A stretch of DNA of 64,000 nt from Myxococcales bacterium (GTDB lineage Bacteria; Myxococcota_A; UBA9042; JABWCM01). The translations under genes were made by a program, and so were the position numbers. The notes below the pieces were generated by a model. The model ran no database searches. It was not told the origin of the DNA and worked only from the letters and a program-made list of their open reading frames with translations. This document shows positions 36,201 to 59,500 of the stretch, piece by piece (within the stretch, counting starts at the first letter, position 1; each line of letters begins with the position of its first letter). The stretch is taken from the NCBI GenBank assembly GCA_013360285.1, contig JABWCM010000005.1, forward strand, positions 2,149 to 66,148. Direction: 5' to 3'.

Positions 36201-37504
36201 ATGCTAAACGAGCTGGCGAGTTTCATGTGGGTGTCGGCCATGTATACATCCCGTTGGCAAACCTGCGTAGGCATCGCAGCGTTGCAAATGGCTTTTTGCA
36301 TCGATGGCGTCGCCGCGGCAAGGTTGTCCAACTTGTCGTTGAGGGTGTCTACTTGGTCCTGCGACGCGTAATAAGAAGCCGGTTGGCCACCTAAGGTCAA
36401 CGCGTCGGTCGAATCCCACACCGGTGAATAGTGGTATCCGTCCACCTTATCTGAGTCATTCGCGTAGTTAACCGTAATATTGTCGGGAATTTGAGCGTCC
36501 GTAGCAGTACCTGTCAACTCACTAAAGTTACTGATGGTCGCGTCATTTTGGCAGGTCCAGCCGGCGGCGCCATACTTCAGGATCTGGCCGGCCGCGCAGG
36601 TGGAGAGAAGACCAAACGACGTACCGGTCAGCGCCACACCGCCGTTGGCGGACGCGGTGTAAACCTGTCCAACGTTAATGCAGGTAGCGGTTCCATCCTG
36701 ATTGATCTTCATGATGGCGCCACCGGTGCAAGTCGTAGTGACCCGGCGTTGCACGTAGGTGTCGTCGATGTGGAAAATCGACCCGCTGGCGGTGAGCCCG
36801 GTACCCGCAAAGTATTGGGGACCTTCGTCATCGGTGCCGTCGGCAAAGTCCGACGGGATTCCGGTGAGTTGCGACCAGTCAACGGTGGCATTTCCGCTGT
36901 TCAGCAGGGTTTTCCAAGAGGTGCCGTCACAAAACGACAACATTCCCTGGTAATAACGGATGGTACCGGCAGCACCGGAGACGCACGCGTCGGTTGTTGG
37001 ACCCACTTGCAGGGTTCCAGACAGCGCCAAGGCATCTGCGTCCAGGTCGCCGACTTCGATGTCGTCGCCTACTTGCAGGAAGTCCGACGCGGGTACCCCG
37101 CCGAGAAACTGAGCGTCACCAGCGAGAACAGCAAATGGAACCGACAGAATTTTCTGTCGTGGCGCCAGGGCTTCGCCTTCAATAATGATCTCCAGCCAAA
37201 GGTCCGATTGGGACATCAACGCACTATCAAGTGCCGACGGTGTTCCACCAGACAAAACCAAACTCATGGTACCATCGGCCACCGCAACATCCTCAAACAC
37301 ACTGGATGTCCAGATTGCGCCGGCACCACCATCGGGCGCTGGGTAAATTTTTGCCTGAACCGTTGCCAGAACCCCGTCATAAGGGGATCCAGCCTGGTTA
37401 AGTTGCCCTGTATAGGGGACGGCCACTGGCACTGCCAAGGCCGGAGCCTGGAGCGCCATCATCAGGGCTAACGCTCCCAACAGTCGAAATCGAATCGAAC
37501 GCAT
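33260..37504 (-). CDS. Giant secreted protein (1,414 aa), paralog A: fibre-like N-terminal region, then six tandem ~125-aa Cys/Trp-rich modules and a Cys-rich C-terminus
   Basis: Signal peptide MRSIRFRLLGALALMMALQAPALA, with GGAGGTG upstream of the ATG at 37504. Six modules each begin D[WT]MxT[DE]DxC[GK]G[FW]RQS.[WF]D.R.[WY]YAV[AS][KR] and then contain YxCPxGYHWATT.E, QCGWSGY.W, YFRFSDS and FAGI[IV]C[IK]. About 60-75% identical to the 45928-50184 protein. Confidence 0.7.
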   Translation of the reverse strand: MRSIRFRLLGALALMMALQAPALAVPVAVPYTGQLNQAGSPYDGVLATVQAKIYPAPDGGAGAIWTSSVFEDVAVADGTMSLVLSGGTPSALDSALMSQSDLWLEIIIEGEALAPRQKILSVPFAVLAGDAQFLGGVPASDFLQVGDDIEVGDLDADALALSGTLQVGPTTDACVSGAAGTIRYYQGMLSFCDGTSWKTLLNSGNATVDWSQLTGIPSDFADGTDDEGPQYFAGTGLTASGSIFHIDDTYVQRRVTTTCTGGAIMKINQDGTATCINVGQVYTASANGGVALTGTSFGLLSTCAAGQILKYGAAGWTCQNDATISNFSELTGTATDAQIPDNITVNYANDSDKVDGYHYSPVWDSTDALTLGGQPASYYASQDQVDTLNDKLDNLAAATPSMQKAICNAAMPTQVCQRDVYMADTHMKLASSFSMLSGGEWVYYAPGNRCEYSGGIATPNPKLCGQDLMPSWMDTTDECGGFRQSTWDTRVWYAVAKSNQWDPNYNYTCPNGFVPMTTNQAKAIFNGPQAAGALVYQNQCGWSGTVWGGKNRRWFRTSDSKLNSGFYKDSTSYDGTSTSTTMSLQDFAGIICISTATPGPLDWMLTEDSCNGWRQSTFDSRFYYAVARKNWYDPNINYQCPTGYHWATTAEAYSVFKTTNNEGVRVYQNMCGWNSYSALNDGLTRHHFRFADSFKDGTTLAHKHAGNADPYTVQFDIANGASSEYFAGIVCKADVDPAADPTDWMDKTDYCGGFRQSQWDPRFYFAVAKSGTWDKTYPYACPAGYVWATTADVQAAFTTSNSATHYNYYSTCGWNGYVWGASGLNRYFFRTANSAVDNWYMHAGDYEQYRGTTNSTTANFAGIICKKITDDPYPKPGTTDWMLTDDDCKGFRQSSWAPQIRYAVARQNVWNKTYPYQCPTGYHWASSAEYKAIMDNQPSTGSFYRYSNQCGWSAQVWHGQTRTYFRFSDSATNNRYLHSESHETSAHATDGTLTSFAGIVCIQDNYVEGPLDWWDRSDNCGGFRQSFFDPDVYYMVSKSTLWNPNKVYTCPDGYHWMTTAEGDASFKTGLGNYNQGPYAYHDMCGWSAYVWRGRSRTYFRFSDSNVTGRYKHAGNYDAFLDSGADETITSFAGIMCKKNVSAGPLAWMDTSDNCGGWRVSLADPNIAYAIAKSTIWNPTYDYQCPTGWHWATAAEYAARKVANGNIVVSGQKAYHNQCGWSGYNWNVAWTWGCSSYGNTGCGSTSNAGTPTMSEWRLDKMLPSDQQNFAQGCTSCNTYHPSTTCNAQGTEEGADGKCGGIDEASWRNNRNINECYYSDNNFSGSPNGMVSGTASNHCPPGGGPCCGDSEWENYTKYREYLRVKGTTPTTATYLHTTSADGADLSVNNVGTGYGPSGGNESTSVRYFAGIICIKD

Positions 37505-37760
37505 CTCCGCACCTCCGCTACGTGGTTGGGGAACCTGCGCAGAATCCCCGGGGTTCACTGCACATATCACAGTCTCTCCGTACTCTCGCGTCACGGAAAG
37601 TTCAGAATAACTGTTTCTGCCCATTGATCCGGGATCTGCGAGCGCCAGTAATTTGCCGCCAGTCTTGGTACCCATCGAAACGCCTCTGCCAAATTGTCAA
37701 TAACACATCAAACACGCACCACGTCGTTCCGGCGCGGCTTTCACCGCACCCAGTTTTGGG

Positions 37761-40700
37761 CTACGGGCAAATCCCGCAGTCGGAAGGACAAAACGAACAA
37801 TACTCGTAACTTTCACAAATGCCGTTCCCGCAGTCATACAACTCGCAGGAATCAACACAGTTATTTCCGTTTGCATCGGGTGCAACCGGTAATTTTAGCG
37901 CATAGTAGATCACCAACTGCACGTCGATTACGTTCAAATTCGTATCACAGTTGAGATCGCCAATTGTTGTCGGTCCGATCAAACACGCTGGAAGCGGACC
38001 GGTGTCGCCGACAAGAAAATACAAAGCCAATAGTGATGTACATTGCGCATCGACTACGTTTGTCATGCCGTCGCCGGTGACATCGCCTTTGAAGAGGCAC
38101 GCGCAACCTTCATCGAAACTTTCGTCGCAGTCGTTATCGGAGTCATCACAGAACTCAAAGTTCCGTCCATGAATTTCGTCAACGATTCCACTACTATACA
38201 GGTCGAGAATATCTGCGGAGTCAAGCGCAAACTCGTAAAGTGCGATCTGATCAATGAGACCATTAAACACTCCACCGTTTCCGGTAAACCCGACAACAAA
38301 ATAGCCTTGAGTCGTAAGCAGTGAATCGCCGTCGCCAGGATCCGACGCACAAATTTCGCTACCATCAACGTAAAGTTTACAACCGTCCACCGACCCGCAG
38401 GAAAGGGCGACATGATGCCAAGCGTCATCGGCCACAACAGGTCCTTGACCGGAACACGTCGCTGTGCCGCCGGCAGTGGCAACGGAATAGGACAGTTTTC
38501 CTCCAGTGACGTTGAGTGTGCGGTCGTAACCACCCACTCCAAGTGGTGTGCCGGCCGACGCCATCATGATGCCACCGTTGGTGGCGGTTTTAATGTAGGC
38601 GGTCAACGTGAAGTTCGACTCAGGAATATTGGCGGTAGAGCTAAGATAACCGCCGAAACCGGATAACTTAAGCGCACCACCCTGATAGCCGCTGGCACTA
38701 AGTGTTGCCGGTGGAACCGCTGCGGCATTGTTTCCTGTGCCGGAGCCGTCGATGATTTGTGTGCTCAGCACATCGAATTCCCATAGCGCCACGGGCCCGG
38801 TGTTAACACACTCAATGCCTGTGATCGCCGAAACACAATCCAGTCTGCCGTCTTCACAGAGGTCGGCATCTCCGGCGTCGCACAATGTTCCGATGGTGGG
38901 ATCTTGTGTACCTACGCAGTTTCCAGCCACACATTGATCTGACAGTGTACAAACGTTGCCGTCGGTACACGGGCCAGGGGTCGCGGCATAAATGCACCCA
39001 CTGTTCACGTTGCAGGTGTCTGATGTGCACACGTTGTTGTCGTTGCAGACGGAGTTGTTGGGTGTGTATTGGCAGCCAAATGTTGGGCTGCAGCTATCGG
39101 TTGTGCAAGCGATGTTATCGACACACACCAAACCTTCGTTTTTGCATCCGACACCGGACTCACAACTATCCAGCGTACAAGCGTTGTTGTCATTGCAACT
39201 GGTGACGATTCCGGTCGGTGTGCAGATTCCGTCGATGCAGAACGCCAGTGCCACACAGGGGTCTCCATGGTCGCACGTAAAGAGGTTGTCGAAGTAGACA
39301 CACCCGGTTCCGGGTACACATACGTCGTTTGTGCAGGGATTGCCATCGTTACAATCGAGCGGCACATTAGGAAGGCAACCGAAGAACGAATCACATGTTG
39401 GAACGGTGCATATGTTGCCGTCTTCGCAGTCAGGCGCGGGGCCACTTACGCAGCCGATGTCTGAAATGCAGGTGTCGATCCCGGTGCAGAAATCCCCGTC
39501 TCCGCAGACTACTTCCGTACCCACACAGTAACCGGATACGCATTTGTCACTTTCTGTACAGGTATCGCCGTCATCGCACGCGGCTCCCGGCGTATCGCAA
39601 AATACTGCCGGTACACCGGTAAAGATGGTGCTGTCTTCGACTTCTACGATCAACGGTACCGCGCCGGGTCCGCTTGCTACTACCGACGTCGCGACGACCG
39701 GAGCTGGTTTGGATGGATCGATGTCGGCACTCAGCACAAAGGTCAGTGCCAAAAACACCGGATCACCATCTATTCCACCGGGAATTTCGTATGCGTCCGT
39801 AATCGGTGCGGTCGGTGTACCAAAATTCAGCATCGCGAGGGTTGCAGCTCCGCTCCAGTTGGAGGGGGTACCTGGAGCCATCAACAAGAGATGTCCCGAA
39901 GGCAGGGCAACCGATGGAGGGTAGGTTGGTACACATGTCTCGCATGCGGTCAGTTTTTGCGCTGTCAGCGAAGGAGGATAGGCGAGACTCAGTTGAAGGG
40001 CCGAAGCGTTTGGCTCAGGTTGTTGGCGGCGAGCTAGTTTCAACAAACAAACCGCAGTAGAACCGGCGTTTCCGCTGATTTGGCAAAGAACATTTTCGGT
40101 TACGTTGTAGCAGAACTCCGGAGCATAGATGCAGCCGGTTGCGCTGTTGCACTCCTCTTGTGTACACGGGTCGCCGTCGTCGCAAGAATGCGGCGGATAG
40201 GTACATCCCGCCAAGGGATCGCATGTATCATCCGTGCACAAGTCGTTGTCGTTGCATATAACAACCGTAGACGAATCACAGGCTCCGGCACTGTCACAGG
40301 TGTCGATGGTGCATTGATTGCCGTCTTCGCAATCAGGGGACGGGCCAGCCTGGCACCCGAGAGAGGGGAGGCAAAATTCGATCCCATTACAAAAGTCGCC
40401 ATCGTCACAACTGGTCGTGGTTCCGACACATACTCCGGCTACACACGTGTCGTTGGTGGTGCACAAGTCTAGGTCATCACAAGCGCTGCCGTTTTCTGCG
40501 CACAAGGTCGTGTACGCATCCGTTACGATAAGGTTGTTTTCGACCGTCGCTTTGAGCGGAACGGCTTGCGCGCCGGTGGCAATCACGTTGGTGGCTTTGA
40601 CAAACACTGGAGTCTCTGGTGCAACGTCTTGCTCCAGAGTGAAGAAGCCAACGAGATACTCGACGTCGCCTACCGTCGTCAGTCCGTCCACGTAGCCGGT

Positions 40701-43700
40701 TGTCAACGGGGAATCCGAACCGCTGAAATCCAGGGACAACAAATTTCCGGAACCACTCCAGGCGCCAGGTGTGCTCGGCGACAGCGCGACGGTATGGCCG
40801 GTAGAAAGTGGTGCGGGCGGAGTGGGGAACGCACAACCCGAGCACTCCTTAAACATGCTCAATGTTGCGGTATTCGGGTAACTTAGCGTCATTTGTATGG
40901 ACGAAGCAGATTCTTGATCAACTGTTCGTTTTGCAATACGAATTAGGCATTCCTGTACGCTGCCTGCGGACCCCGACAATTTACAAATCACATCTGTGTC
41001 GTTCGGGTCGTAACACGCCAGAGGCTGATGAATGCAGCCTTGCACTGGGTGGCACGAATCGGCTGTACAGTCGTTTCCGTCATCACACGACAGTCCTGGA
41101 TTGTTGATACATCCCACCGCGGGATTACAGGTGTCGGTGGTACAGGCGTCATTGTCATCGCAGTCGGTTGCTCCCGAAACAAAACACCCGGTTAAATCAT
41201 CACAGCTTTCGGTTGTGCACGGATCTGAATCAGCGCAGTTGGGAGATGGGCCAGACACACAACCAGCCAAGGAATCGCAGAGTTCAAGGCCATTGCAGAA
41301 CAGTCCGTCGTCGCATTCGATTTGTTGTCCAACACAAAACCCGGTAACACAAATGTCTCCGCTGGTGCACGCATTTCCGTCATCACATGGCATGCCGGAA
41401 GCAGCGCAGGAAACCGGATACTCGCCGGTTAAAATCACGCCATCCTCAATCGAAGCGTCGAGCGGATACGCTCCTGGTCCTGTGGCAAGAATCCCGGAGC
41501 CAACAACGGCAATCGCGTTGTCGAGTGCCACATTTTCGACCAGGGTAAAATGCGCAATTACAAATACGGGGTCACCCTGAATCGCGCCACCGTCCATGTA
41601 TGCCGATGTGATCGCGTCGTCTGGATTGGTGAGGTTCACAATTGCGAAAGTGCCGGTTCCAGACCAGGAAGCAAGGTTTGGTGGAGCGAAGCCGACGGTA
41701 TGTCCGTTCACGAGTGTATTCAGTGGTGGAATGGTGCCCGGACAACCGTCGCAGCGAGTAAGATAAGACAGGGTGGCGCCGTTTCCGTAACTTAACGTTA
41801 GTTGAAGTGCGGCGGCATTGTCTTCAGAAAAATCCCGTCGAGCGAGTCGCAGCGGGCATGTTACCGTTTCTCCGGCGAGACCGCTCAGTTCACACAACGT
41901 GTTCTGGTCATAGGTAGGGTCATAACAAAAGAGAGGAACATATTCGCAGCCCACCGAAGGTACGCAAATGTCGTCGGTACATGCATCTCCGTCGACACAG
42001 GTCGCCGAAATATCATCATAAACACAACCGATAGCCGAGTCGCAGGAATCGGCGGTACAAGCGTTGTTGTCATCGCATACAACTGTCGGTAGTGACACAC
42101 AACCCAGAACGGGGTCACATCCGTCGTTTGTGCACGCATCGCCGTCGTCACAATTGGGGACTGGTTGCGATTCACACCCTGTAGCCGCGTAACAGGACTC
42201 CAGCCCATTACAAAAGTCGCCGTCGTCACACGTTATCGGCGCACCGACGCACAATCCGCCGATACACAGGTCACCGCTGGTGCAAGCGTCGCCATCATCA
42301 CACGGAACCCCGCTGTCTTCGCACACTACGGTATACGGATTCGTTACGATGATCGTATCAATGACCTCGACGCTCATCGGTGATGCGGTGCTGTTCGCTG
42401 CGAGAATATCGTTCGCCACTACATGTAAGGGAGCGGAAGGTAGTATGTCGGACGCCAGCGTAAACCACGCGACAAACAAAGTCGCATCGCCGTTTACCGT
42501 GGGGCCAGTCATCCATGCGTCCGTTAGTGGATCCGTTTCTCCGGAGAGCGGAAGGGCCAAAATCGTTCCCGACCCGGACCAAGCGTCGAGTGTCGGCGGA
42601 TTTAGCCCCACGATCTGCCCGTGCGGAAGCGGCGAAGGGGGAACCGGCGCTGGGCAGGCTTCACACGCGGTAAAATGCGTGATTTCCGCTTCCGCCGGAT
42701 CGAACGTTAACGAAAGCTGTACACTGGATGCTGCGGACTGCGCCATCGCACCGCGCGCGAGCCGGACAATGCAAGGAACTGTAGCACCCGAGGTCCCCGA
42801 CAAGGAGCATACAGTGTTGGCGGGTACGGTTGGGTCATAACAAAACAGCGGCGTGTAAACACACTTTCCCGGTGCTTCGCAGATCTCGCTAGTACAAACA
42901 TCACCATCGTCGCATAGCCCGGCGATTTGGTTGTTTTGGCATCCGGTTGCAGGGTTACAGGTGTCTGTCGTACAGGTGTTGTTGTCGTCGCAGTCCACGA
43001 TGCCGCTGGGTAGACACCCGATGTCGTCATCACACAATTCGGTGGTGCACAAATCGCCATCGTTGCAATCGGGAACAGGACCGGACAGGCAGCCGCTCGA
43101 CGGCACACAGACTTCGATTCCGTTGCAGAAATCTCCGTCGTTACAGTTCACAGGTTGGCCCGCACACACACCGGCAACACATAAGTCTGACGTCGTACAG
43201 AGGTTGTTGTCATTACATGGGGCACCGGGTGTGGCACACGTTACCGTATTGTCACTTACAACAATAACCTTGTCTCCGTTTACGCTCGCCATCATCGGAA
43301 CAGCACCCGCACGGGCTACTGTGATATTGCCCGCACGAACATAAATGGGATTCGCTGCGTCGACATTTGCGGTCAGTTGAATGTTTGCGACCACAAACAT
43401 GGCTTCCCCGTTCAAAGTCCCGCCGTCGTAGTAGCCGTCCAACAGGGCGGTATCGGGGGCTCCAACATGAAGCGCTAGGATGGTGCCGTTCGTTGTCCAA
43501 GCAGACGGATTAATGGGGGATAACGACAGGATATGACCGCTGGACAGGGTTGTTGCAGGCGGAAACGTCGGCAAACAACCATCGCACTCCGTAAAGTGAG
43601 CTAGTGCGGTGTTTGACGGAAGTATCAGGCCAATTTGGGTGCTTACGGGTAACGACGTTGCAGCGTCTTTTCGCGCAAGTCGTATGGGGCAAGCCACCGT

Positions 43701-44819
43701 GCTGCCGGCGGTCCCCCAAAGTGAACACAGTGCGTCGTCCGGTACCGTAGGGTCAAAACAAAACAGCGGCGTATGAGAACAACCCGCTGGGCCCCCGCAA
43801 ACGTCGGCGGTGCATACGTCTCCGTCGTCACAGACCGAAGCATCGGGTGTGTATGTACAACCTGTAACCGGGTTGCAACTGTCTATTGTACATGTGTCGT
43901 TGTCATCGCAGACCGTCGGCGTCCCAAAATGACAGCCGGCAGCAGGATTACACAGGTTTGCAGTGCACGGAAGGCCGTCGTCACAGGTAGCTGGGGTCCC
44001 CTGCGCGCAGGAACCGCCCGAACAATAATCAATGCCGTCACAAAAATCGCCGTCATCACAACTTACAGCTATACCAATGCAGTAGCCCGCAAGACAGGTG
44101 TCTCCTGTGGTGCAGGGATCGCTGTCGTTACATGGCGCACCATTAAAAGGGCACGCCGGCGGAAGAAGAGTGGTAATAATTCCATCTGTGGTTTTCGTAA
44201 TTAGCGGAATGGCGCCTGTGCCACTTGCGACCGCACCGGTAACGACAACCAACTTCGGGTTTGCAGCATCGACGGTTTCGCCCAACACAAAGTTTGCTAC
44301 CAGCACGACTGGATCGCCAACCAGCAAACCATTGTCCATGTGCGCATTTGACAAAGGGGGGGCATCAGGATCAAAGCTCAGCAGCAACAGGGTGCCGGTA
44401 CCGGGCCAGTCGTTCGGATCATCGGGGGACAGTGACACGATCTGCCCCGTATCAATGGAGATAGCCGGAGGAAATGAGACTGGGCAACCCTCACATTCAG
44501 TAAACGACTGTAGGCTAAGACCTTGAGGAAAATCGAATTCAAGTTGGAGTGCTATAGCGCCGTCTTGGCTCGGATTGGCGCCTGCAACACGGATGGGGCA
44601 GGAAACGGTCGAGCCGGCAGGCCCGCTGATTTCGCACAAGACGTTCGGTTCAATTGCTATGGCGTTAGCGGCACAAAAAACAACCGATGCGGCGACCATC
44701 GTGGCGACCGCCGTGTGGCAGTGGGCCAAATGCCGACCGTTTTCTGCGGCTTGGCGCCCTACCCATCGACACCGATTGACGGTGCTGGCAATGATGTTGA
44801 CAGCGGCATTCGCCGACAT
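37761..44819 (-). CDS. Giant secreted scaffoldin-like protein (~2,350 aa): 8 cohesin-like modules alternating with CDDGxxCTxDxC repeats, then LamG and a C-terminal dockerin pair
   Basis: Eight ~165-aa modules (LCEISGPAGSTVSCPIRVAG...ALQLEFDFPQGLSLQSFTEC...) resemble type-I cohesin (G.TV.VPV.....G.I...DF...YD...L). Each is followed by 6-7 copies of a ~24-aa repeat C[DN]DG[DN].CT.D.C.P..GC. A LamG-like region (LWEFDV...AWHHVALS...LYVDG) follows. The C-terminal dockerin segments are GDVTGDGMTNVVDAQ and GDLNCDTNLNVIDVQ. The start is placed at the ATG at 44819, with AGGAAAGG 6 nt upstream. The alternative is 44699. Confidence 0.65.
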   Translation of the reverse strand: MSANAAVNIIASTVNRCRWVGRQAAENGRHLAHCHTAVATMVAASVVFCAANAIAIEPNVLCEISGPAGSTVSCPIRVAGANPSQDGAIALQLEFDFPQGLSLQSFTECEGCPVSFPPAISIDTGQIVSLSPDDPNDWPGTGTLLLLSFDPDAPPLSNAHMDNGLLVGDPVVLVANFVLGETVDAANPKLVVVTGAVASGTGAIPLITKTTDGIITTLLPPACPFNGAPCNDSDPCTTGDTCLAGYCIGIAVSCDDGDFCDGIDYCSGGSCAQGTPATCDDGLPCTANLCNPAAGCHFGTPTVCDDNDTCTIDSCNPVTGCTYTPDASVCDDGDVCTADVCGGPAGCSHTPLFCFDPTVPDDALCSLWGTAGSTVACPIRLARKDAATSLPVSTQIGLILPSNTALAHFTECDGCLPTFPPATTLSSGHILSLSPINPSAWTTNGTILALHVGAPDTALLDGYYDGGTLNGEAMFVVANIQLTANVDAANPIYVRAGNITVARAGAVPMMASVNGDKVIVVSDNTVTCATPGAPCNDNNLCTTSDLCVAGVCAGQPVNCNDGDFCNGIEVCVPSSGCLSGPVPDCNDGDLCTTELCDDDIGCLPSGIVDCDDNNTCTTDTCNPATGCQNNQIAGLCDDGDVCTSEICEAPGKCVYTPLFCYDPTVPANTVCSLSGTSGATVPCIVRLARGAMAQSAASSVQLSLTFDPAEAEITHFTACEACPAPVPPSPLPHGQIVGLNPPTLDAWSGSGTILALPLSGETDPLTDAWMTGPTVNGDATLFVAWFTLASDILPSAPLHVVANDILAANSTASPMSVEVIDTIIVTNPYTVVCEDSGVPCDDGDACTSGDLCIGGLCVGAPITCDDGDFCNGLESCYAATGCESQPVPNCDDGDACTNDGCDPVLGCVSLPTVVCDDNNACTADSCDSAIGCVYDDISATCVDGDACTDDICVPSVGCEYVPLFCYDPTYDQNTLCELSGLAGETVTCPLRLARRDFSEDNAAALQLTLSYGNGATLSYLTRCDGCPGTIPPLNTLVNGHTVGFAPPNLASWSGTGTFAIVNLTNPDDAITSAYMDGGAIQGDPVFVIAHFTLVENVALDNAIAVVGSGILATGPGAYPLDASIEDGVILTGEYPVSCAASGMPCDDGNACTSGDICVTGFCVGQQIECDDGLFCNGLELCDSLAGCVSGPSPNCADSDPCTTESCDDLTGCFVSGATDCDDNDACTTDTCNPAVGCINNPGLSCDDGNDCTADSCHPVQGCIHQPLACYDPNDTDVICKLSGSAGSVQECLIRIAKRTVDQESASSIQMTLSYPNTATLSMFKECSGCAFPTPPAPLSTGHTVALSPSTPGAWSGSGNLLSLDFSGSDSPLTTGYVDGLTTVGDVEYLVGFFTLEQDVAPETPVFVKATNVIATGAQAVPLKATVENNLIVTDAYTTLCAENGSACDDLDLCTTNDTCVAGVCVGTTTSCDDGDFCNGIEFCLPSLGCQAGPSPDCEDGNQCTIDTCDSAGACDSSTVVICNDNDLCTDDTCDPLAGCTYPPHSCDDGDPCTQEECNSATGCIYAPEFCYNVTENVLCQISGNAGSTAVCLLKLARRQQPEPNASALQLSLAYPPSLTAQKLTACETCVPTYPPSVALPSGHLLLMAPGTPSNWSGAATLAMLNFGTPTAPITDAYEIPGGIDGDPVFLALTFVLSADIDPSKPAPVVATSVVASGPGAVPLIVEVEDSTIFTGVPAVFCDTPGAACDDGDTCTESDKCVSGYCVGTEVVCGDGDFCTGIDTCISDIGCVSGPAPDCEDGNICTVPTCDSFFGCLPNVPLDCNDGNPCTNDVCVPGTGCVYFDNLFTCDHGDPCVALAFCIDGICTPTGIVTSCNDNNACTLDSCESGVGCKNEGLVCVDNIACTTDSCSPTFGCQYTPNNSVCNDNNVCTSDTCNVNSGCIYAATPGPCTDGNVCTLSDQCVAGNCVGTQDPTIGTLCDAGDADLCEDGRLDCVSAITGIECVNTGPVALWEFDVLSTQIIDGSGTGNNAAAVPPATLSASGYQGGALKLSGFGGYLSSTANIPESNFTLTAYIKTATNGGIMMASAGTPLGVGGYDRTLNVTGGKLSYSVATAGGTATCSGQGPVVADDAWHHVALSCGSVDGCKLYVDGSEICASDPGDGDSLLTTQGYFVVGFTGNGGVFNGLIDQIALYEFALDSADILDLYSSGIVDEIHGRNFEFCDDSDNDCDESFDEGCACLFKGDVTGDGMTNVVDAQCTSLLALYFLVGDTGPLPACLIGPTTIGDLNCDTNLNVIDVQLVIYYALKLPVAPDANGNNCVDSCELYDCGNGICESYEYCSFCPSDCGICP

Positions 44820-45137
44820 GTTGCCCTTTCCTTGCGCCGTTTCTGGGTCACCTGAACCCACCGCGGCACCTAAACCGTCATTAAGCCAACATTTGGACAA
44901 GACCAGGTGGCTTGTCGCCGTTTCTCCGCGCGTACCCTGCGTTTTCTTCGCAGCTTTCGGTGCTGACGCACCCAAAGACGCTGTCGGGTCTGGAGGCTTA
45001 AGTTAGCGTGGGTCCGCTAAATGCTTGTTCGCTTTGGTTTTGCTACAACATTTCTGACGGAGCCTACGTGATATCGTAATGCACGGAACTACGAGCGAGC
45101 TGAGTAAACGAGCGCACTCGCGCAAATATCCATTCGC

Positions 45138-45773
45138 TTAGGGAATTTCTTGAGGAATTCCTTCGCTCTTCGGTTTTAGTTCAAATTCTGCGCCACCGTC
45201 TGGGCTGGCAGACGATCCTGTCGTCGCGGCACCGGTTCCGATTGCGCGTAAGCTAAACCCACCCCCGGTTGACTCACCGGTGGAATAAATCGGCAACACC
45301 ATCGGCAACGGGACATACCCGAGTGGTTGACACGGTGCCGCACAACCAGTGCCGGACGGGTCCACTCCGCTCGAAAGCGGCTGATTGAGTGCCAATGTGA
45401 TCAGAATGTTTACGTCGATGACGTTGACTGTTCCGGAGCAGTTCACATCTGCTTTGGACAGGGGTTGCGCCGCACAGGCGGGAGCTGCGCCAACTTGTCC
45501 ACCCAATTCCCATAGGGACAATATGATCCCACAATGGGCATCAATTACGTTGACATTGCCGTCGCCATTAATGTCGCCAAGTGGGCTGAGAATGACCCCG
45601 TTGAACGGGTTTACGCACTCGTTGGCGGCGGCCGTGCCGGCAACGGCGGTCACGAGTGCAATGCAAAATAGTCCTACGCCTGTCGCTGTGAAACCGCGAC
45701 GCTCACTGTATCTCGTGGCGCCACTGGCACCGTTTCGGCCATTCATATTGTGTGCACCCATTTGCGCTTTCAT
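45138..45773 (-). CDS. Small secreted dockerin-repeat protein
   Basis: TM/signal GVGLFCIALVTAVAGTAAA. Two Ca-binding dockerin-type segments, GDINGDGNVNVIDAHCGIILSLW and ADVNCSGTVNVIDVNILITLAL. GGGAGG lies 5 nt upstream of the ATG at 45773. Confidence 0.55.
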   Translation of the reverse strand: MKAQMGAHNMNGRNGASGATRYSERRGFTATGVGLFCIALVTAVAGTAAANECVNPFNGVILSPLGDINGDGNVNVIDAHCGIILSLWELGGQVGAAPACAAQPLSKADVNCSGTVNVIDVNILITLALNQPLSSGVDPSGTGCAAPCQPLGYVPLPMVLPIYSTGESTGGGFSLRAIGTGAATTGSSASPDGGAEFELKPKSEGIPQEIP

Positions 45774-45927: not shown

Positions 45928-48900
45928 CTACAGTTTGATGCAGACAATTCCGGCGAACTGGTCCTGCCCGGTGTAGTTTTCCACGGGCTGATTATCGTTG
46001 TCGGCGGCATCTTTGGCCGTATTGTTGGTTTTGGAATCAGCGAATCGGAACCAACGACGTGTAAGTGTACGTCCCTGAATTTCGCTGTTACCGCAACACA
46101 CGCCGTTGTAGCAATGGTCGCCATACGTACCTGAGACAATGTTCTTCGGAGTTCCAGAAACGCTGTTTGGCGACCAGTAGCAGTCATTTAACTCCTGACC
46201 ATTTCGCCACCGGGGCTCGTCAATTCCGCCGCATTTTCCATCCGGACCGGAAGTGGTTCCGGAAGACTGGCACGTGCTGGTGTAATTTTGACATTGTGTA
46301 CAGCCAAACGCGAAGTCCGACGCTGCGGTCATGATTTGTCCCATAGTCGGTGACGGAGATGCGGTGCCCGAACCACAGCCGGCCTGGCCGTAGGAGCTGC
46401 ATCCCATCTGCCACAGTGGGTTCCAGTTGGAACCGCTCCAACCACATTCGCCCCAGTAGGTGTTGGCTGGGAAACTCGGGTTGTTGTTGAAAGCAACTTC
46501 GCCGGAATTGGCCCACTTATAACCCGCGGGACAAGCATAGGTACGGTCACGGTCCCACACGGAACTTTTTGATACCACGTACAATACGTTCGGGTGGGAA
46601 GATGAAGTACGCATGCCACCACAGTTATCGGAGGTGTCGACCCAGTCGAGAGCACCGGCGGCTGCGTCTTTCATACACAGAATGCCCGCAAAGTTAGATG
46701 TGGTGTCGGTAATATTAGCAGTGATATATGCTTCGGGTTCGTCCACGTGTTTGTATCGCAGCGTCAAGTTGGAGTCGGCGAAACGGAAGTAGTGACGGAG
46801 TAGTCCGTGCCATTGATTGTTTGGCACCGTGTAGTCTTGTGATGTTGTCCAACCACACTCTCCGCGATAAGAACGCTGCGCTTCGTTGATGATGTTTGCG
46901 GTGTTGTATTCTGCACCAAGGCGGAACACCACGTTTGCTTCGTTGGTCGTCATCCAATGGAATCCCGGCGGACAAACATAGGTTTCGGGGTTGTTTTTGG
47001 CCCACGTGTTGTTCCGGGCGATTGCGTAGTAGACCCGCGGATCCCACGCCGACTGACGAAACCCGCCGCAGTTGTCGGTTTTGTCCATCCATGCGGTTTG
47101 ATCAGCAGGTGGGGAGTTGGAAAGACATACGATACCCGCAAAGCTGGTCATCGGAGTCGAGCCAAAGGTCGAATAGAGGGTTGGTTCGGCGTGCGCCGCG
47201 TCGAAATATCGTTTTGTGCCGGAATCGCCTGTGTTCCAGGTATCGGAGAAAAAGAAATACTGACGATAACGATTTTCCCAGTTGTAAGCGCTCCAACCAC
47301 ATTGGCCATGATATTTGTAATAGTTTGTGCTGCTGCCGACCATCAAGTTGTCGACTTCGGTGGAAGCCGCCCAGTGGTAACCCGTGGGACATGTGTACGT
47401 ATAACCCGGCTTGAAAATGTTTTGTCGAGACACAGCAAAACGAATCCGCGCATTCCAGGTAGACTCACGGAAACCTTTGCAGTCGTCGCTGGTTTCCATC
47501 CACTCCGTGGTTCCTACCGGCGGATAAGCAGGCGTTCCTGTTTTTTTGCAGACAATTCCTGCAAATTCACTGGTTGCGCCGGACGTGGTGCCTCGGTAAG
47601 AATCGGCATCTGCGGCGTTCATGTAACGATTGGTTCCGGTGACGTCCGGTTTGATTCGGAAATAAACACGTTGTACGCCGTTCCAATACTGGCCGCTTGT
47701 TGAAGACCATCCGCATTGGTTGCCATATACACGTTGGTCAGACGAGGGGTTGGACGTGGTGAATGCAGCGTCAATTTCGGCGCCCGTCGCCCACGTATAG
47801 CCTGCCGGACATTGGTAGTCCAAGGCTGGGTTCCAAGTCGTAGATTTCGACACCGCGAAGTAGAAGTTGGGGTCCCATGAACTCTGACGGAAACCGCCGC
47901 AGTAGTCGCTGGTATCCATCCAGTCGGTCGGAGATACGGTCGGATCTTCTTTCATGCAGACAATGCCGGCAAATTCGGTCAGGGTTTTGTCATCGAACTG
48001 AACGGTATACATTTCACCGTTGCCCGAATGTTTGTATGCGCCGGTCGCCAATCCCTCGAACGAATCTTTGAAACGGAAGTAGTACCGGTTCATGCCGTTT
48101 GCCTGCATGTCGTAGCCGGTCCAGCCACATTTGCCGTTGTAAACCGTTCCCTGATTCAACGTCGTTTTGAACACGGCGTACGCTTCTGCGGTGGTAGCCC
48201 ATTTGAAGCCCGTGGGACATTGATAATTGAAGCCATATTCATACACGTTACGACGAGCAACCGCATAGTAGAACCGGCTGTCAAACTCACTTTGTTTGAA
48301 ACCGCCACAAAGGTCCTCGGTGAGCATCCAGTCCAATGGACCTGCCGGCGTTTTGGAGATACACACCATTCCAGCGAAGTTGGTCAACGTGCCGGATGTG
48401 GGCAACCCAAATCCGTCTGCGTGTGTGGAGTCTTTATAATAGTACTGTGACTTGCCTGAATCTTTGTAGCGGAAGTAGGTTTTGGTTTGGTTTTTCCAAA
48501 CGTTGCTCTGCCAGCCGCATTGGTTTTGGTAGGTTTTAGCACCGGCATTGTTTGCGCCTTTAAAAATCTGCTTCGCTTGTTCGACGGTCATTGCGTCGAA
48601 CCCTGCCGGACACTCGTAGTTGTAGGCCGGATCCCAGACGTTGCTTTTGGAGACCGCGTACCAAACCCGCGTATCCCAAGTGCTTTGACGGAATCCACCA
48701 CACAGGTCGGTGGTGTCCATCCAGGACGGCATCAGGTCCTTCGCACATTGTTCCGGAGCAGGTGTCTCGATTCCACCTTGGTATTCGCAGCGATCTTCCG
48801 AAGCGTTGTAGCTCCATGTGCCGCCGGACAACAACATCATCGAATACGGATCCATGGATGGATCGGCACCCGCCATGTGAACACTCCGTTTGCAGACTTT

Positions 48901-53400: not shown

Positions 53401-53534
53401 GGAGTGCACAAATCGTCTTCGACAACAACGGCACATGCGGCGGACATCGTGGTTGTGAACAGAATCAACAACGACATCTGACGGAATTGGGTTACGATTT
53501 TAAACGGATTCCGTTTTACTGACGTTTGCGTCAT
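50463..53534 (-). CDS. Secreted Cys-rich repeat protein (1,023 aa) with two C-terminal DUF1566 (Lcl C-terminal-type) domains
   Basis: Acidic linker, then ~14 CDDxNxCTxDxC-type repeats identical in style to those of the scaffoldin-like protein. The C-terminal DUF1566 motifs are WRVPSWHELWTL...IVCV and WRLPTISELASL...YWSSTTLDVFPSQAWVAYQYYGGTGFATKTSSAHVRCV. Confidence 0.65.
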   Translation of the reverse strand: MTQTSVKRNPFKIVTQFRQMSLLILFTTTMSAACAVVVEDDLCTPNQKSCIDGNPYQCSSTGEEFVALTPGCQLGETCIAGKCVVEEDTNIKDDVSIDVANPDVTTPEDTQSGDQLGDVEGSDLISDTGGDTATVADSTDDTGEDEFDDTAHNEDTTGDAATTCDPSDCDDNNVCTTEECNEQGDCVSIPATGQPCDDGDICSANEVCNKGTCRSDTPTICEDNNPCTEDSCVPEVGCSFEAITGVPCDDGEPCTESDKCTRGLCMGTWLFDCNDENPCTKDLCDPEVGCAYEPLNGGLCDGPGLCLAGGVCENSECTGGKPKTCDDQNPCTADTCLDTMGCSYIAVDGEVCEDNNPCTVEDLCNNGVCTGGKPKTCEDSDECTENGCDPTSGCTFVEISGTACNDDDLCTTGDICKNGACVGQESVNCNDDNPCSNDSCKNGVCEYVAVENGAACDDGDACTTDTVCFENICAGGTPLDCSDGNPCMETPCDVDTGCATPIPLTGTLCDDNNLCTTSESCQNGTCEALTTLVCNDNEVCTFDECDPLLGCFFVAAQSSLSCDDGNPCSAPDHCEFGKCKPGTPTVCNDNEACTADTCSVTKGCVFTPILGACTDNNACTVGDSCKVGKCVPGTTLVNCNDGLACTIDNCDSETGKCAFNPKPMDAQPCTAVGSATGVCDTGMCIALPHPLPSGVTWIPAGQPNGLPFAMPWPPDTGQQKCYSASQPDLVLICNPPTEQCGLTPGCGQDGQLNLEEDWFSPNRMQKLTLTGVSGQVWADNETGLFWSPVSTAKGSYSSATTICTNYGDLIDGQPWRVPSWHELWTLIHFGKHDPALVHPAATSASSSDLLWTNTQAFAGSRWTVDAYDGRLVAISDETAKLGIVCVNGQGQPQTVPHRFFTAKIAETTVAFDPWTDLLWQTDPGPADSWTNALSHCENLTDADLDLWRLPTISELASLQNNVYDGAIDTTVFGSAANKQYWSSTTLDVFPSQAWVAYQYYGGTGFATKTSSAHVRCVVSNPVF

Positions 53535-56580: not shown

Positions 56581-59500
56581 TTATGGGCAGTTACATGCGG
56601 AATCGCAATCGAGTGCCGCTTCCGAGACGCAGATTTCGTCCCAGGTGACTTCACAACAAAAATCGTCGAGAGCACAAACACACGACTGGCAATCCGCATC
56701 GGAACACCCCAGTCCGCCGTTTGCAAAACAACAATCGTTTGCAGCCTCACATCCGCAGTCGGTATCGCAAGCGGTTTGTGCAACCGTCGCACAACTGTCC
56801 GTCCACTCCGTGGTGCAGCAGGTATCGTCGATATCGCACACACACGCGGTACATCCGGTTACCGCGCAGCCCGGGGTTCCGTTCGCCGCGCAACAGTCCC
56901 CTTCCGGAGCCGCGCCGCAGCCGCATGCCGCCGAGCAGTCACCCGCCGCAAACTGCACACACACTTCGTCCCAGCCGACATCACAGCAGAAATCGTCATT
57001 TGTGCACACGCAGCTTTGACATGCGGGTGTTTCGCAACCCGGCTCAATGTGGGGTGCGCAGCAATCACCAGTTGCAAAGACACCAAAACACCCACACAAC
57101 GGTCCACAATCTTCGGCCGCAATCGTTACACACAACTCGTCCCAGGAAACACTGCAGCAAAAGTCGTCGAGTGCACACACGCAGGATTCACATTCGGCGT
57201 CGTCGCACCCAGGCTCCCCTTTCGGTGCACAACAATCCGAATTGGGACACCCACACTCGGTGCAGTTGGATGCGGCTTCCGCAACACACAGACCATCCCA
57301 GGTGACATCGCAGCAGAACGTATCGAGAGCACATACGCAGTCTTGGCAAAGCGGGTTACCACACCCAGGGGTATCCAGTGCCGTGCAACAATCTCCAGCC
57401 CCGAAATCAGGGCAATCACACACATCGTTGCAACCGGCCGATGCCTCCGCGACACACAGGTTGTCCCATCCGGTCGAGCAGCAAAACGGGTCATTACCAC
57501 AGACGCAGGATTGGCAGAGTTCATCTTTGCACCCAGCGGCACCCGTCGGGACACAACAGGAGCCTTCGCCCGGCTGGGAGATACACTGGCACGCATCATT
57601 GCAGTCCAGCGCCGCCTGACTTACACACAGGTTGTCCCACGCGGTGTCACAGCAGAACGGATCTGCAGCGCAGACGCATGCTTCGCACGCCGGTGCATTA
57701 CATCCTGGACCATTGTTGGGTAAACAGCAGTCGCCCGCGTCACACAAACACACCGAGTTGCATTCCAATCCGGCTTCACCTACACAGATGCTGTCCCACG
57801 CCGTGTCGCAACAGAAGCCATCCAGGCCACATACACACGCCTCACAGGCAGGGTTGTTACATCCTGTGTCATCATGGCTGCCACAGCAGTCGTTTGCGGG
57901 GCATCCACAAGCGGAACCACACTGGTCCGAAGCAATCGACACACACAGGCTATCCCATGCGGTACCGCAACAGAACGCATCGGTGCTGCAGACACAATTC
58001 TGGCACGGTAAGTTATCACATCCAGCCGTTGTGTGAGTGAAACAGCAATCCTCTGTGCCGGCGAACGGCTGGCACGAACAGGCTGCGTTACACTCTATTC
58101 CGGCCGTTGCCACACACAGGTTGTCCCAACCCACATCGCAACAGAACGAGTCCAGGTTGCAGACGCATTCCGAACAGTCCGCATCGTCGCAGCCGGCGCT
58201 GCTGTGGGGTTGGCAGCAGTCTTCGCTGTTGCACAAACAGGACGCATTGCAGTCCTCTGACCCGGCAGCGTCAACGCATAACGTATCCCACGCGGTGTCG
58301 CAGCAGAATGTGTCCAATGAACACACACAGTCAGTACATGCCACGTTGTCACAGCCCGGGACAGAGCTTGCGGTACAACAATCACCTGGCGGGCAGGAGC
58401 ATTGGCCAGCACAAGTGGTCTGTGCTTCACCGGCGCAGACGTCGTCCCACATCGTGTCGCAGCAGAAAGAATCCGCGGCGCATACACATGCTTCGCAGTC
58501 GAATGTTCCACACCCCGGGGACCCATTTGCCGAACAACAATCGCCGACACCACACCCACAGAAGTCCGCGCAGTTGTCTTTGGCACTGGCTACACACGCC
58601 GTATCCCAAGCGATACCGCAGCAGAAACCATCCAGGGCACACACACACCCTTCACACGAGTCGTCTTCGCATCCCGGAGAATTGTGGTCATCACAACAGG
58701 GTTGGTTACACAAACAGGGTCCGTCGACGTTCACCACACTGATTTGGCCGCGGAGTTCACCGTTGGGATACAGATCCGAGTGAATGTTGACATACAGGTT
58801 TCCAGCCACGAGTTCCGTGAGCAAAGTCGGCGTCAACAATGCGCTTCCGATTTTCGGCGTGCCGTCGGGTAACGGAATCACCACCGGGCCATTTTCGCCG
58901 GGCGGCGCCTGATGGATATGAGCGGCGATTTCCACGCCATCGAGATCTTTGTACGTGATTACGTAACTTAGCATCATGCCGTTTAATGTGAACGTTGCCG
59001 TTCCGGATCCTCCGGACGGAACCGGTGGATTATGCTGGCTTCCTTGGGGGGTTGCCGTAATGGACTGAGAAACCGCGCACAAACCGGTCGCTACGCTGAC
59101 ACAAAATTCGTCCCACGCCGAATCACAGCAAAACGGGTCGGCATTACACACACACGTTTCGCATTGGAAATTGGTGCATCCACCGATGTCGCTGGTCGAG
59201 CAGCAGTCACTTTGTGCTGGACAATCCAATCCGCACAAGGTTTGGGCTTCGGAAACACAGATCGAGTCCCATGCTTGTTCGCAGCAGAACGGGTCGAGAT
59301 TGCATACGCAGGTTTCCACCGCACTGTCGGAGCAACCGAGGTTGGTCCCGGCATCACAACAATCACCTTTGCACGCTCCAAATTGGCCGGCCAAGGAAGC
59401 ACAAGCACTTCCCCAGGTATCCGTACAGCAGGCGGCGTTAATCGAACACACCAACAACGTGGTCGTGTTGTCCTGGCAGCCGGGTGTTCCGTTGGCGCTG

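Follow-up and report, generated by a model that had tools for sequence, protein, structure and literature searches.

A scaffoldin-like gene in a Myxococcales genome: six cohesin-fold modules, Dicty_CTDC spacers, a LamG domain and a dockerin

The gene and its module order

Minus-strand positions 37761-44975 of the window (the whole 64-kb stretch of DNA analysed here) form a single open reading frame, in which the ATG at 44819 yields a product of 2,352 residues. This product is 100% identical to the NCBI hypothetical protein HUU55_01225 from a Myxococcales bacterium metagenome-assembled genome (MAG). A Shine-Dalgarno-like motif, AAGGAAAGG, lies 6 nt 5' of the ATG. An ortholog at another locus (L001) shares 79% identity with HUU55_01225 with zero gaps and retains the entire module arrangement; wherever dS could be computed, the domains give a dN/dS of roughly 0.1 or below, dS being saturated in 10 of the 16 regions compared. 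The gene at 37761..44819 is real. Scanning 33-51 kb for promoters and terminators gave counts at the level of shuffled sequence, which carry no information on operon structure. The features of the gene are listed below, with the evidence for each in brackets.

37761..44819, minus strand: whole gene, 2,352 aa plus stop, six-cohesin-fold/Dicty_CTDC/LamG/dockerin protein (ORF, NCBI identity, Shine-Dalgarno-like motif, ortholog)
44655..44819, minus strand: probable Sec signal peptide (aa 1-55) with a long n-region and a hydrophobic core, VATMVAASVVFCAANAIA, probably cleaved ahead of IEPN (read from sequence, ortholog)
44133..44654, minus strand: cohesin-fold module 1 (aa 56-229) (HMM domain, alignment; 81% identity to ortholog)
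43752..44132, minus strand: spacer 1, five Dicty_CTDC repeats (aa 230-356), 21 Cys (Pfam, Cys pattern)
43218..43751, minus strand: cohesin-fold module 2 (aa 357-534) (HMM domain, alignment; 71% identity to ortholog)
42834..43217, minus strand: spacer 2, five Dicty_CTDC repeats (aa 535-662) (Pfam, Cys pattern)
42303..42833, minus strand: cohesin-fold module 3 (aa 663-839) (HMM domain, alignment; 73% identity to ortholog)
41919..42302, minus strand: spacer 3, five Dicty_CTDC repeats (aa 840-967) (Pfam, Cys pattern)
41388..41918, minus strand: cohesin-fold module 4 (aa 968-1144), the one whose structure was modelled
41007..41387, minus strand: spacer 4, five Dicty_CTDC repeats (aa 1145-1271) (Pfam, Cys pattern)
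40482..41006, minus strand: cohesin-fold module 5 (aa 1272-1446) (HMM domain, alignment; 77% identity to ortholog)
40107..40481, minus strand: spacer 5, five Dicty_CTDC repeats (aa 1447-1571) (Pfam, Cys pattern)
39579..40106, minus strand: cohesin-fold module 6 (aa 1572-1747), the most strongly conserved of the six (HMM domain, alignment; 89% identity to ortholog)
38793..39578, minus strand: long stalk, nine Dicty_CTDC repeats plus a Cys-rich tail (aa 1748-2009), 40 Cys (Cys pattern)
38208..38639, minus strand: Laminin_G_3/concanavalin-A-like lectin domain (aa 2061-2204) (Pfam PF13385; 88% identity to ortholog)
37839..38105, minus strand: dockerin, six-Cys variant (aa 2239-2327), Ca-loop/helix repeats DVTGDGMTNVVD and DLNCDTNLNVID
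37764..37838, minus strand: C-terminal Cys cluster YDCGNGICESYEYCSFCPSDCGICP (96% identity to ortholog; model confidence low)

The signal peptide is the region least conserved in the ortholog (49% identity), which retains a hydrophobic core with an ANASA end followed by the same IEPN. Because of this probable signal peptide, HUU55_01225 is likely secreted. No membrane or cell-wall anchor was identified for the protein, and Pfam finds no SLH domain, sortase signal or similar anchoring domain in it or in its neighbours.

From the N-terminus, the signal peptide is followed by six module-plus-spacer units with five repeats per spacer, the sixth run being longer, and then by Laminin_G_3, one dockerin and the Cys cluster. 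An earlier note on this DNA had described a scaffoldin-like architecture, and it had the kind of architecture right and the counts wrong. The ordered alternation of a β-rich module with Cys/Asp-rich repeats of about 24 residues is present, as are the LamG domain and the final Cys cluster that it quoted. The eight units it proposed are in fact six, both by the motif C.[IL][SW]G..G and by HMM domains; the modules measure about 175-178 residues instead of about 165; and spacers 1-5 hold exactly five repeats each, not six or seven, only the last run being longer. Its "double dockerin segment" is a genuine dockerin, consisting of one module with the usual two Ca-loop/helix repeats.

The six units align at 33-41% identity with 21 invariant columns, and the module/repeat pattern is far beyond chance. 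A tandem-repeat search of the gene at the DNA level returned just a trivial 25-bp repeat, which rules out an assembly artefact or a recent duplication as the source of the array. The six modules are ancient intragenic duplicates.

Module folds and family assignments

The predicted structure of the module is the flattened β-sandwich (jelly-roll) of cohesins. Two independent structure searches both place cohesins at the top, cleanly apart from every other fold. The best Foldseek match is 2xdh, a cohesin from Archaeoglobus fulgidus, and 1ohz, 3kcp and 4fl4 are among the fold matches. Identity between the modules and solved cohesins is only about 10-19%, and the modules carry conserved cysteines at C9, C21, the C56-x-x-C59 pair and C171.

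None of the six window modules matches Pfam Cohesin (PF00963) even at an E-value of 10, let alone at the gathering score. The description of the modules as cohesin-like is nevertheless borne out by homologous modules in paralogs, which exceed the Pfam cut-off of 24.1 bits (P0010, 40.6; P0007, 38.2; P0142, 31.7); the passing matches span only positions ~5-53 of the 139 in the profile, and 4 of 24 modules match individually. PDB sequences searched with six-module and 24-module profiles gave no match at E 10, and the link between the modules and solved cohesins is therefore absent by sequence alone. A word-indexed protein search with the six-module alignment likewise returned no match; the module family was recovered only through a full-length query and an exhaustive HMMER search.

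Spacers 1-5 each comprise five repeats of 24-27 residues, with four Cys per repeat plus one extra Cys, and the pattern counts 34 repeats in total. Pfam assigns them to Dicty_CTDC (PF00526) with a score of 183.9 bits, where the cut-off is 27, and 16 separate stretches exceed it. The earlier note had called them Myxococcus-type cysteine-rich repeats, each of which may be a small disulfide knot. NCBIfam, searched with the whole protein at E-values up to 0.1, returned no family; on the assumption that the release contains TIGR02232, which we take to be the model of the Myxococcus cysteine-rich repeat, that label was dropped. A PDB sequence search with the Dicty_CTDC run matched no solved structure. 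Dicty_CTDC is the Cys-rich 24-residue repeat of Dictyostelium, found in slime-mould extracellular matrix and spore-coat proteins. The window repeats belong to the same Pfam family and share its four Cys per ~24-27 residues, yet they are bacterial and form regular five-repeat spacers between cohesin-fold modules.

Toward the C-terminus, PF13385 matches the LamG domain with an E-value of 5.8e-15 (score 56.2 bits, cut-off 27.6) over profile positions 10-150 of 151. The dockerin, 98% identical to that of the ortholog, contains the two tandem segments of about 22 residues that define dockerins, each an intact Ca-binding loop (general form D-x-[ND]-x-D...[ND]-x-x-D) and then a helix, with a Thr at position 3 of the first loop. 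Its model has the dockerin fold, with helices at residues 30-44 and 72-82 after the loops. Pfam dockerin (PF00404) scores 23.9 bits on the isolated segment, against a cut-off of 22.9, but with the full-length protein as query the score is 14.6 bits (E 0.04); six of seven family members give Pfam dockerin matches. The variant is distinguished by six extra conserved Cys and an inter-repeat segment longer than in clostridial dockerins.

Dockerin carriers and linkage to the module

Two further genes in the window encode the same dockerin variant.

45138..45773, minus strand: adjacent upstream gene for a small secreted protein, which consists of a signal peptide, a dockerin of this variant at 45324-45599 and a tail of ~60 aa (Pfam, dockerin HMM, synteny)
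56581..60021, minus strand: 1,146-aa protein with an N-terminal dockerin (59596-59871), a Cys cluster, CHRD and many Cys-rich repeats of ~40 aa (dockerin HMM, 138 bits)

The dockerin of the adjacent gene scores 27.5 bits with Pfam Dockerin_1 (cut-off 22.9) and 127 bits with the dockerin HMM. The order of small dockerin gene followed by scaffold is kept at the ortholog locus, where the small protein shows just four differences in ~160 mature residues. The CHRD protein is encoded 12 kb upstream of the HUU55_01225 gene, and its dockerin is followed by the same Cys cluster that ends HUU55_01225. Three dockerin carriers and six modules thus lie within one 64-kb window, and the two neighbouring products are candidate ligands of the cohesin modules. 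A flanking 1,471-aa protein has no match in the PDB.

Beyond the window, the module family is small (371 representative clusters) and is found mostly in Myxococcota MAGs. The dockerin variant occurs in 27 of 153 module proteins, compared with 1 of 110 Dicty_CTDC proteins that have no module (Fisher p ~4e-7 and 3e-6). Natural fusions of dockerin and module are as short as 316 aa (P0215), and the gene adjoining the paralog P0004 encodes both together. Paralogs in the same MAG have 3-8 modules. This strong association, statistical as well as positional, argues against a giant adhesin or stalk whose modules act as rigid β-sandwich spacers or bind non-protein ligands, and whose dockerin is a Ca-stabilised module with some other partner, the two never pairing. 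The clustering of three carriers with the six-module gene, the conserved synteny and the clear separation of cohesins from other folds in both structure searches weigh in the same direction, and we regard this explanation as rather unlikely.

The position of the module within family proteins bears on another alternative. In 129 of 153 proteins (93 of the 115 with a Met start) no more than 12 residues follow the last module, which is therefore C-terminal, as would be expected of a sorting or anchoring domain in a secretion or surface-attachment pathway, with the six internal copies a derived, repurposed expansion. Many family members have 2-8 copies, however, most of them internal, and none of the six in HUU55_01225 is C-terminal. 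The module matches no known sorting-domain family, and the combination of N-terminal dockerin and C-terminal module is equally well explained by head-to-tail assembly. A primary role in sorting appears highly improbable to us.

In Myxococcota MAGs the dockerin is found on proteins with Cys-rich repeats. Of the metagenomic carriers, the ten that match this variant most strongly contain RCC1, β-helix, LTD, TSP3, pentapeptide or no domain; only these ten were used because a looser dockerin DNA pattern mixed canonical and Cys-type dockerins. A strict pattern finds only four loci in GTDB genomes, and a word-indexed search with the dockerin profile only 16 short fragments. Among 63 family members, a Pfam survey identifies Dicty_CTDC, LTD, DUF4215, MopE and TSP3 and no hydrolase, and the 64-kb window contains no dockerin fused to a catalytic domain or glycoside hydrolase. 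The modules could in principle recruit dockerin-tagged hydrolases encoded elsewhere, for example predatory or polymer-degrading ones, with LamG targeting the substrate as CBM3 does in CipA. In having several cohesins, a single binding module and a dockerin at its end, the protein does parallel a primary scaffoldin. The wider, loose metagenomic sample includes one Peptidase_S8 and one FGE-sulfatase protein, and the visible genome amounts to 64 kb, which leaves room for dockerin-fused enzymes elsewhere. Against this stand zero catalytic fusions in the window, the 63 family members, the Myxococcota MAG carriers and the ten strongest carriers, and we consider an enzyme scaffold improbable.

Comparison with known systems and proposed function

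In CipA, a primary scaffoldin of C. thermocellum, nine type I cohesins are combined with a CBM3 and, at the C-terminus, an X-dockerin. HUU55_01225 resembles such clostridial scaffoldins in combining several cohesin-fold modules, one ligand-binding module and a terminal dockerin of two Ca repeats in a single, probably secreted chain, with dockerin-bearing genes nearby. It differs in the low identity of its modules to solved cohesins, their invisibility to Pfam and their conserved Cys; in its five-repeat Dicty_CTDC runs, where clostridial linkers are flexible and Pro/Thr-rich; in having LamG in place of CBM3; and in a dockerin with additional Cys and a longer inter-repeat segment. The window shows no dockerin-fused glycoside hydrolase, the protein and its neighbours show no SLH or sortase anchor, and the host is a Gram-negative Myxococcales MAG. 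Set against an operational definition of the cellulosome (PMC11557425), the protein supplies the multiple cohesins, six in one chain, as recognized by fold and family HMM and not by the CDD/Pfam profiles of that work. A dockerin-fused glycoside hydrolase was absent from the window, the sampled family members and the carriers, and HUU55_01225 and its neighbours include no cell-surface anchoring scaffoldin.

Parallels also exist among non-cellulosomal proteins. Like the A. fulgidus cohesin 2xdh and the proteins of ANME archaea, HUU55_01225 comes from a host not known as a cellulose degrader. ANME proteins combine a dockerin with up to five cohesins and are thought to act in surface assembly or cell-cell interaction, and the carriers there are often substrate-binding proteins (PMC9012536). 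The scaffoldin-like arrangement of one dockerin and several cohesins is shared. The window protein, in contrast, belongs to another phylum, has six modules and is accompanied by carriers that are Cys-rich repeat proteins; its presumably disulfide-rich spacers and Cys-reinforced dockerin are not described in PMC9012536. Our literature search for cohesins or dockerins in Myxococcota found no paper on such proteins.

We propose, with a probability of roughly 55%, that HUU55_01225 is a non-cellulosomal relative of cellulosome scaffolds, probably serving surface or matrix assembly and not an enzyme complex. Pairing of the modules with the dockerin is inferred from their co-occurrence and by analogy with characterised families. 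The six modules would be Ca-dependent sockets that accept this dockerin variant. Partners would plug into them, first of all the small protein encoded next to the scaffold and the CHRD protein, while the C-terminal dockerin of HUU55_01225 itself would plug into a cohesin module on a different member of the family. LamG may recognise a surface ligand such as a glycan. The spacers, rich in Cys, would form disulfide-bonded rods in place of the flexible clostridial Pro/Thr linkers, which would suit an oxidising extracellular milieu. The result would be a multivalent and perhaps branched assembly, outside the cell or on its surface, whose role is structural or adhesive; it would not be an enzyme-concentrating cellulosome, because no carrier of the dockerin variant seen here has a catalytic domain. 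We note that the C-terminal bias of the module is not required by such sockets and could point to another role.

A more speculative extension, which we offer tentatively, concerns the family as a whole. Since most members have a C-terminal module and many a matching N-terminal dockerin, head-to-tail chains are possible. The family might then be a self-assembling extracellular polymer, with HUU55_01225, having six sockets and one plug, as a branching hub that cross-links chains and the dockerin proteins encoded nearby, giving a matrix or surface coat that depends on Ca and is stiffened by disulfides. If true, this would be a bacterial matrix made from cellulosome parts and slime-mould-type Cys repeats in uncultured Myxococcota.

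Few protein-protein connectors are known to be as strong as cohesin-dockerin pairs, which have found wide use in engineering; to our knowledge, little has been described of their roles beyond cellulose degradation. HUU55_01225 is annotated as hypothetical and shows no Pfam cohesin, so standard profile scans miss its cohesin subfamily. The locus offers a concrete Gram-negative test case, with six divergent putative sockets, three nearby plugs and spacers predicted to be disulfide-bonded. Should the pairs bind, they would constitute a set of orthogonal, oxidation-adapted connectors, and would suggest that Myxococcota use the cellulosome toolkit structurally, to build a matrix.

Organization and conservation of the 2,352-residue protein

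The main gene lies within a single minus-strand ORF (37761-44975). Its start at 44819 (MSANAAV...) gives a 2,352-residue product with 100% identity to HUU55_01225, a 'hypothetical protein' of a Myxococcales bacterium MAG at NCBI. The ORF continues for 156 nt 5' of this annotated ATG (44820-44975, minus strand), up to a TTG. The ATG is favored because a Shine-Dalgarno-like motif, AAGGAAAGG, lies 6 nt upstream and because the ortholog encoded at L001, a locus from a Logan assembly, is annotated with this start. Residues 1-55 are read as a putative Sec signal peptide whose n-region is long; cleavage would leave a mature protein beginning directly at module 1 (IEPNVLCEISG...).

An earlier note described eight cohesin-like modules alternating with runs of six or seven Cys/Asp repeats. 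The alternation is confirmed, but the signature C-x-[IL]-[SW]-G-x-x-G occurs only six times, with a period of ~305 residues, and a module-derived profile finds exactly six domains, as it does in the ortholog. The modules are 176-178 residues long with 33-41% pairwise identity, and the 21 invariant columns of the six-module alignment include C9, C21, the C56-x-x-C59 pair, W85, and C171. Spacers 1-5 (125-128 residues each) hold exactly five repeats rather than six or seven; each repeat has 24-27 residues and four Cys, and each spacer has one additional Cys in a closing L-F-C-Y-D motif. The sixth run spans 262 residues, with nine repeats and a Cys-rich tail, and the whole protein contains 197 Cys. 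The spacer repeats match Pfam Dicty_CTDC (183.9 bits); an NCBIfam search of the protein returned no family, and the five-repeat run matched no solved structure in the PDB by sequence.

Repeats at the same position resemble one another across different spacers, and the duplicated unit is therefore the whole 305-residue block. A search for DNA-level repeats found none. The earlier note had proposed comparing the modules with each other and with databases: the closest non-orthologous relative of each is a sister module in the same protein (124-139 bits, vs 89-113 for the best module elsewhere). Together, these observations point to an expansion that is intragenic and old.

The LamG domain predicted by the note is solidly assigned (Laminin_G_3, E 5.8e-15). 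The C-terminal segment has a dockerin fold with Ca-loop motifs; what had been called a double dockerin is one dockerin with two loop-helix repeats, DVTGDGMTNVVD and DLNCDTNLNVID. It narrowly passes the Pfam Dockerin_1 cut-off when isolated (23.9 vs 22.9 bits) and falls under the threshold within the full-length protein (14.6 bits). The segment aligns with like segments of other proteins as a distinct variant that has six conserved Cys and closes with a Q-C-x-D-x-C-E motif, and a profile of this variant matches only dockerins in the PDB, weakly (E 0.0025 and weaker). The terminal Cys cluster (C-G-N-G-I-C...C-P-S-D-C-G-I-C-P) is poorly modeled; the same cluster follows the dockerin in a CHRD protein of the window and is found repeated in a related MAG protein.

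The L001 ortholog is identical in length and aligns without gaps at 79% identity. With dS saturated in most regions, dN/dS is given only where computable; values for the domains are ~0.1 or less (0.01-0.12), and the signal peptide region is an exception (0.55). Conservation is highest in the dockerin (98% identity, dN/dS 0.01), followed by the Cys cluster at the C-terminus (96%), module 6 (89%), and LamG (88%), while modules 2-5 and the spacers range from 71 to 80%. The gene is under purifying selection, and its architecture is real, ordered, and conserved.

Fold and family of the modules

Pfam and NCBIfam searches with the six modules gave no match, even at E 10, nor did module profiles match PDB sequences. 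The AlphaFold2 model of module 4, built from an alignment of the six modules, is confident and all-beta (pLDDT 83.4, pTM 0.80). In an independent Foldseek comparison, the first 23 entries are cohesins, led by 2xdh, a non-cellulosomal cohesin from Archaeoglobus fulgidus; neither disorder nor a Big/Cadherin-type repeat, which the note had named as grounds for rejection, was seen. Clearly homologous modules in three database proteins exceed the Pfam Cohesin threshold of 24.1 bits (P0010, 40.6; P0007, 38.2; P0142, 31.7), with matches spanning only the N-terminal third of that profile. By these results, the modules adopt a cohesin fold and form a divergent, Cys-bearing cohesin subfamily. We consider it highly probable that this is a dockerin-bearing protein with six cohesin-fold modules.

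The module family is small. When 1.84 billion cluster representatives were searched exhaustively with HMMER and a profile of 24 modules, 371 proteins were recovered at E <=1e-3 (303 at E <=1e-10), and canonical cohesins were not reached. Where a source is named, the family proteins are attributed to Myxococcales MAGs. The MAG that encodes the main protein has at least three more multi-module paralogs, with eight (P0003), five to six (P0004), and three modules (P0010); the gene downstream of P0004 encodes an N-terminal dockerin and a module.

Two Dicty_CTDC-rich giants, P0043 and P0064, have Pfam-detectable cohesins that the module profile misses, together with a different Cys-containing dockerin-like segment (CGDVNGDSSVNIVDALLTAQ...). 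Cys repeats, cohesins, and dockerins therefore seem, from these sequences, to have been combined more than once.

The dockerin variant and its carriers

Scanned in all six frames with the module and dockerin-variant profiles, the window yields six modules, all within the main gene, and three dockerins of one variant, one in the main gene and two in neighbors:

45138-45773, minus strand: small secreted protein, dockerin plus ~60-residue tail, immediately upstream of the main gene (Pfam Dockerin_1, 27.5 bits)
56581-60021, minus strand: 1,146-residue CHRD/Cys-repeat protein with an N-terminal dockerin of the same variant (six-frame profile scan)

All genes from ~33 to 60 kb are on one strand. L001 keeps the gene order of large repeat protein, small dockerin protein, six-module protein, and large repeat protein. 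As read from the sequences, the small dockerin protein differs from its L001 counterpart at 4 of ~160 mature residues. Its tail (45138-45340, minus strand; ...CAAPCQPLGYVPLPMVLPIYSTGESTGGGFSLRAIGTG...EFELKPKSEGIPQEIP) has no family match and differs at one residue, vs only 79% identity for the adjoining 2,352-residue protein.

Other genes of the neighborhood are:

33260-37675 and 45928-50184, minus strand: paralogous proteins of ~1,420-1,470 residues on either side of the dockerin/cohesin gene pair
50463-53534, minus strand: 1,023-residue protein, a long Dicty_CTDC run followed by two Lcl_C (DUF1566) domains, sharing the strand and the cluster of Cys-rich secreted proteins
53570-56314, minus strand: MMPL/RND-type transporter, between the Dicty_CTDC/Lcl_C and CHRD-dockerin genes
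60163-62151, plus strand: DUF4331 protein whose C-terminal domain is a plastocyanin/azurin-type cupredoxin, adjoining the CHRD-dockerin gene on the opposite strand

The flanking paralogs have in common an N-terminal region and a ~130-residue Cys/Trp-rich repeat present in 6-7 copies (DWM.T.D.CGGFRQS.WD.R.YAV.K...CP.GY.WAT..E...FAGI[VI]C). Pfam gave no match for either, and the downstream one, which was searched against the PDB, has no sequence match there. The downstream paralog is also present in L001, where the upstream gene is partial. In the CHRD protein, the dockerin and CHRD are followed by ~15-20 copies of a ~40-residue repeat (DCC....PGC....C..CVC..D.FCC...WD..CV) that also occurs in dockerin proteins of the Myxococcales MAG AMX-MBFR-64 (loci L006 and L007).

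Module and dockerin variant are associated both genomically and within proteins. The variant is present in 27 of 153 module-bearing proteins, mostly at the N-terminus, and in 1 of 110 Dicty_CTDC-rich proteins that lack a module (Fisher p ~4e-7 in the unbiased full-length-query set, ~3e-6 overall). Minimal natural fusions include P0215, a signal-dockerin-module protein of 316 residues, and P0248, arranged as dockerin-Dicty repeats-module. A passive beta-sandwich adhesin with no cohesin-dockerin pairing appears unlikely beside this association. In 129 of the 153 module proteins, the final module lies at the C-terminus, ending within 12 residues of it. Together with the mostly N-terminal dockerin, this bias is suggestive of either head-to-tail assembly or C-terminal sorting; we regard sorting as a very improbable role for the module.

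The dockerin-variant carriers seen here are non-enzymatic. At four GTDB MAG loci they are proteins of Cys-rich repeats; in metagenomes, the ten strongest carriers either lack Pfam domains or have RCC1, beta-helix, LTD, TSP3, or pentapeptide domains. Other domains among 63 family members are Dicty_CTDC (40), the lamin-tail domain (9), DUF4215, MopE-type motifs, and TSP3; none of the 63 showed a hydrolase domain. A looser metagenomic sample, which also catches ordinary dockerins, includes one subtilase and one FGE-sulfatase protein. A true enzyme scaffold, with its cargo encoded beyond the window, is doubtful and less probable than the passive adhesin.

Proposed function and relation to known systems

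We propose that the modules are sockets for the six-Cys dockerin variant, and that their ligands would be the neighboring small dockerin protein and the CHRD protein. The protein's own dockerin may attach it to another multi-module protein, LamG could direct it to a glycan or surface, and the Cys-rich spacers would act as stiff, disulfide-bonded rods. The product would be a multivalent structural or adhesive assembly. We put the probability of this whole reading at roughly 55%. The qualitative interpretation of the earlier note is retained, its counts give way to six units and five repeats, and its functional reading stays a proposal.

The protein resembles scaffoldins in architecture: it has several cohesins and a single binding module, and a dockerin stands at its end. 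It fails the operational definition of a cellulosome (PMC11557425), as no glycoside hydrolase fused to a dockerin was found, and no SLH or sortase anchor was found in the protein. The nearest described cases are non-cellulosomal cohesin-dockerin proteins, such as those of ANME archaea, which combine one dockerin with up to five cohesins and have no known role (PMC9012536). A literature search of partial coverage, without the 2009 survey of non-cellulosomal modules, found no paper on the features that are new here: a divergent Cys-bearing cohesin subfamily that Pfam does not detect in this protein, a six-Cys dockerin variant, regular five-repeat Dicty_CTDC spacers, a Myxococcota host, and a family polarity of N-terminal dockerin and C-terminal module.
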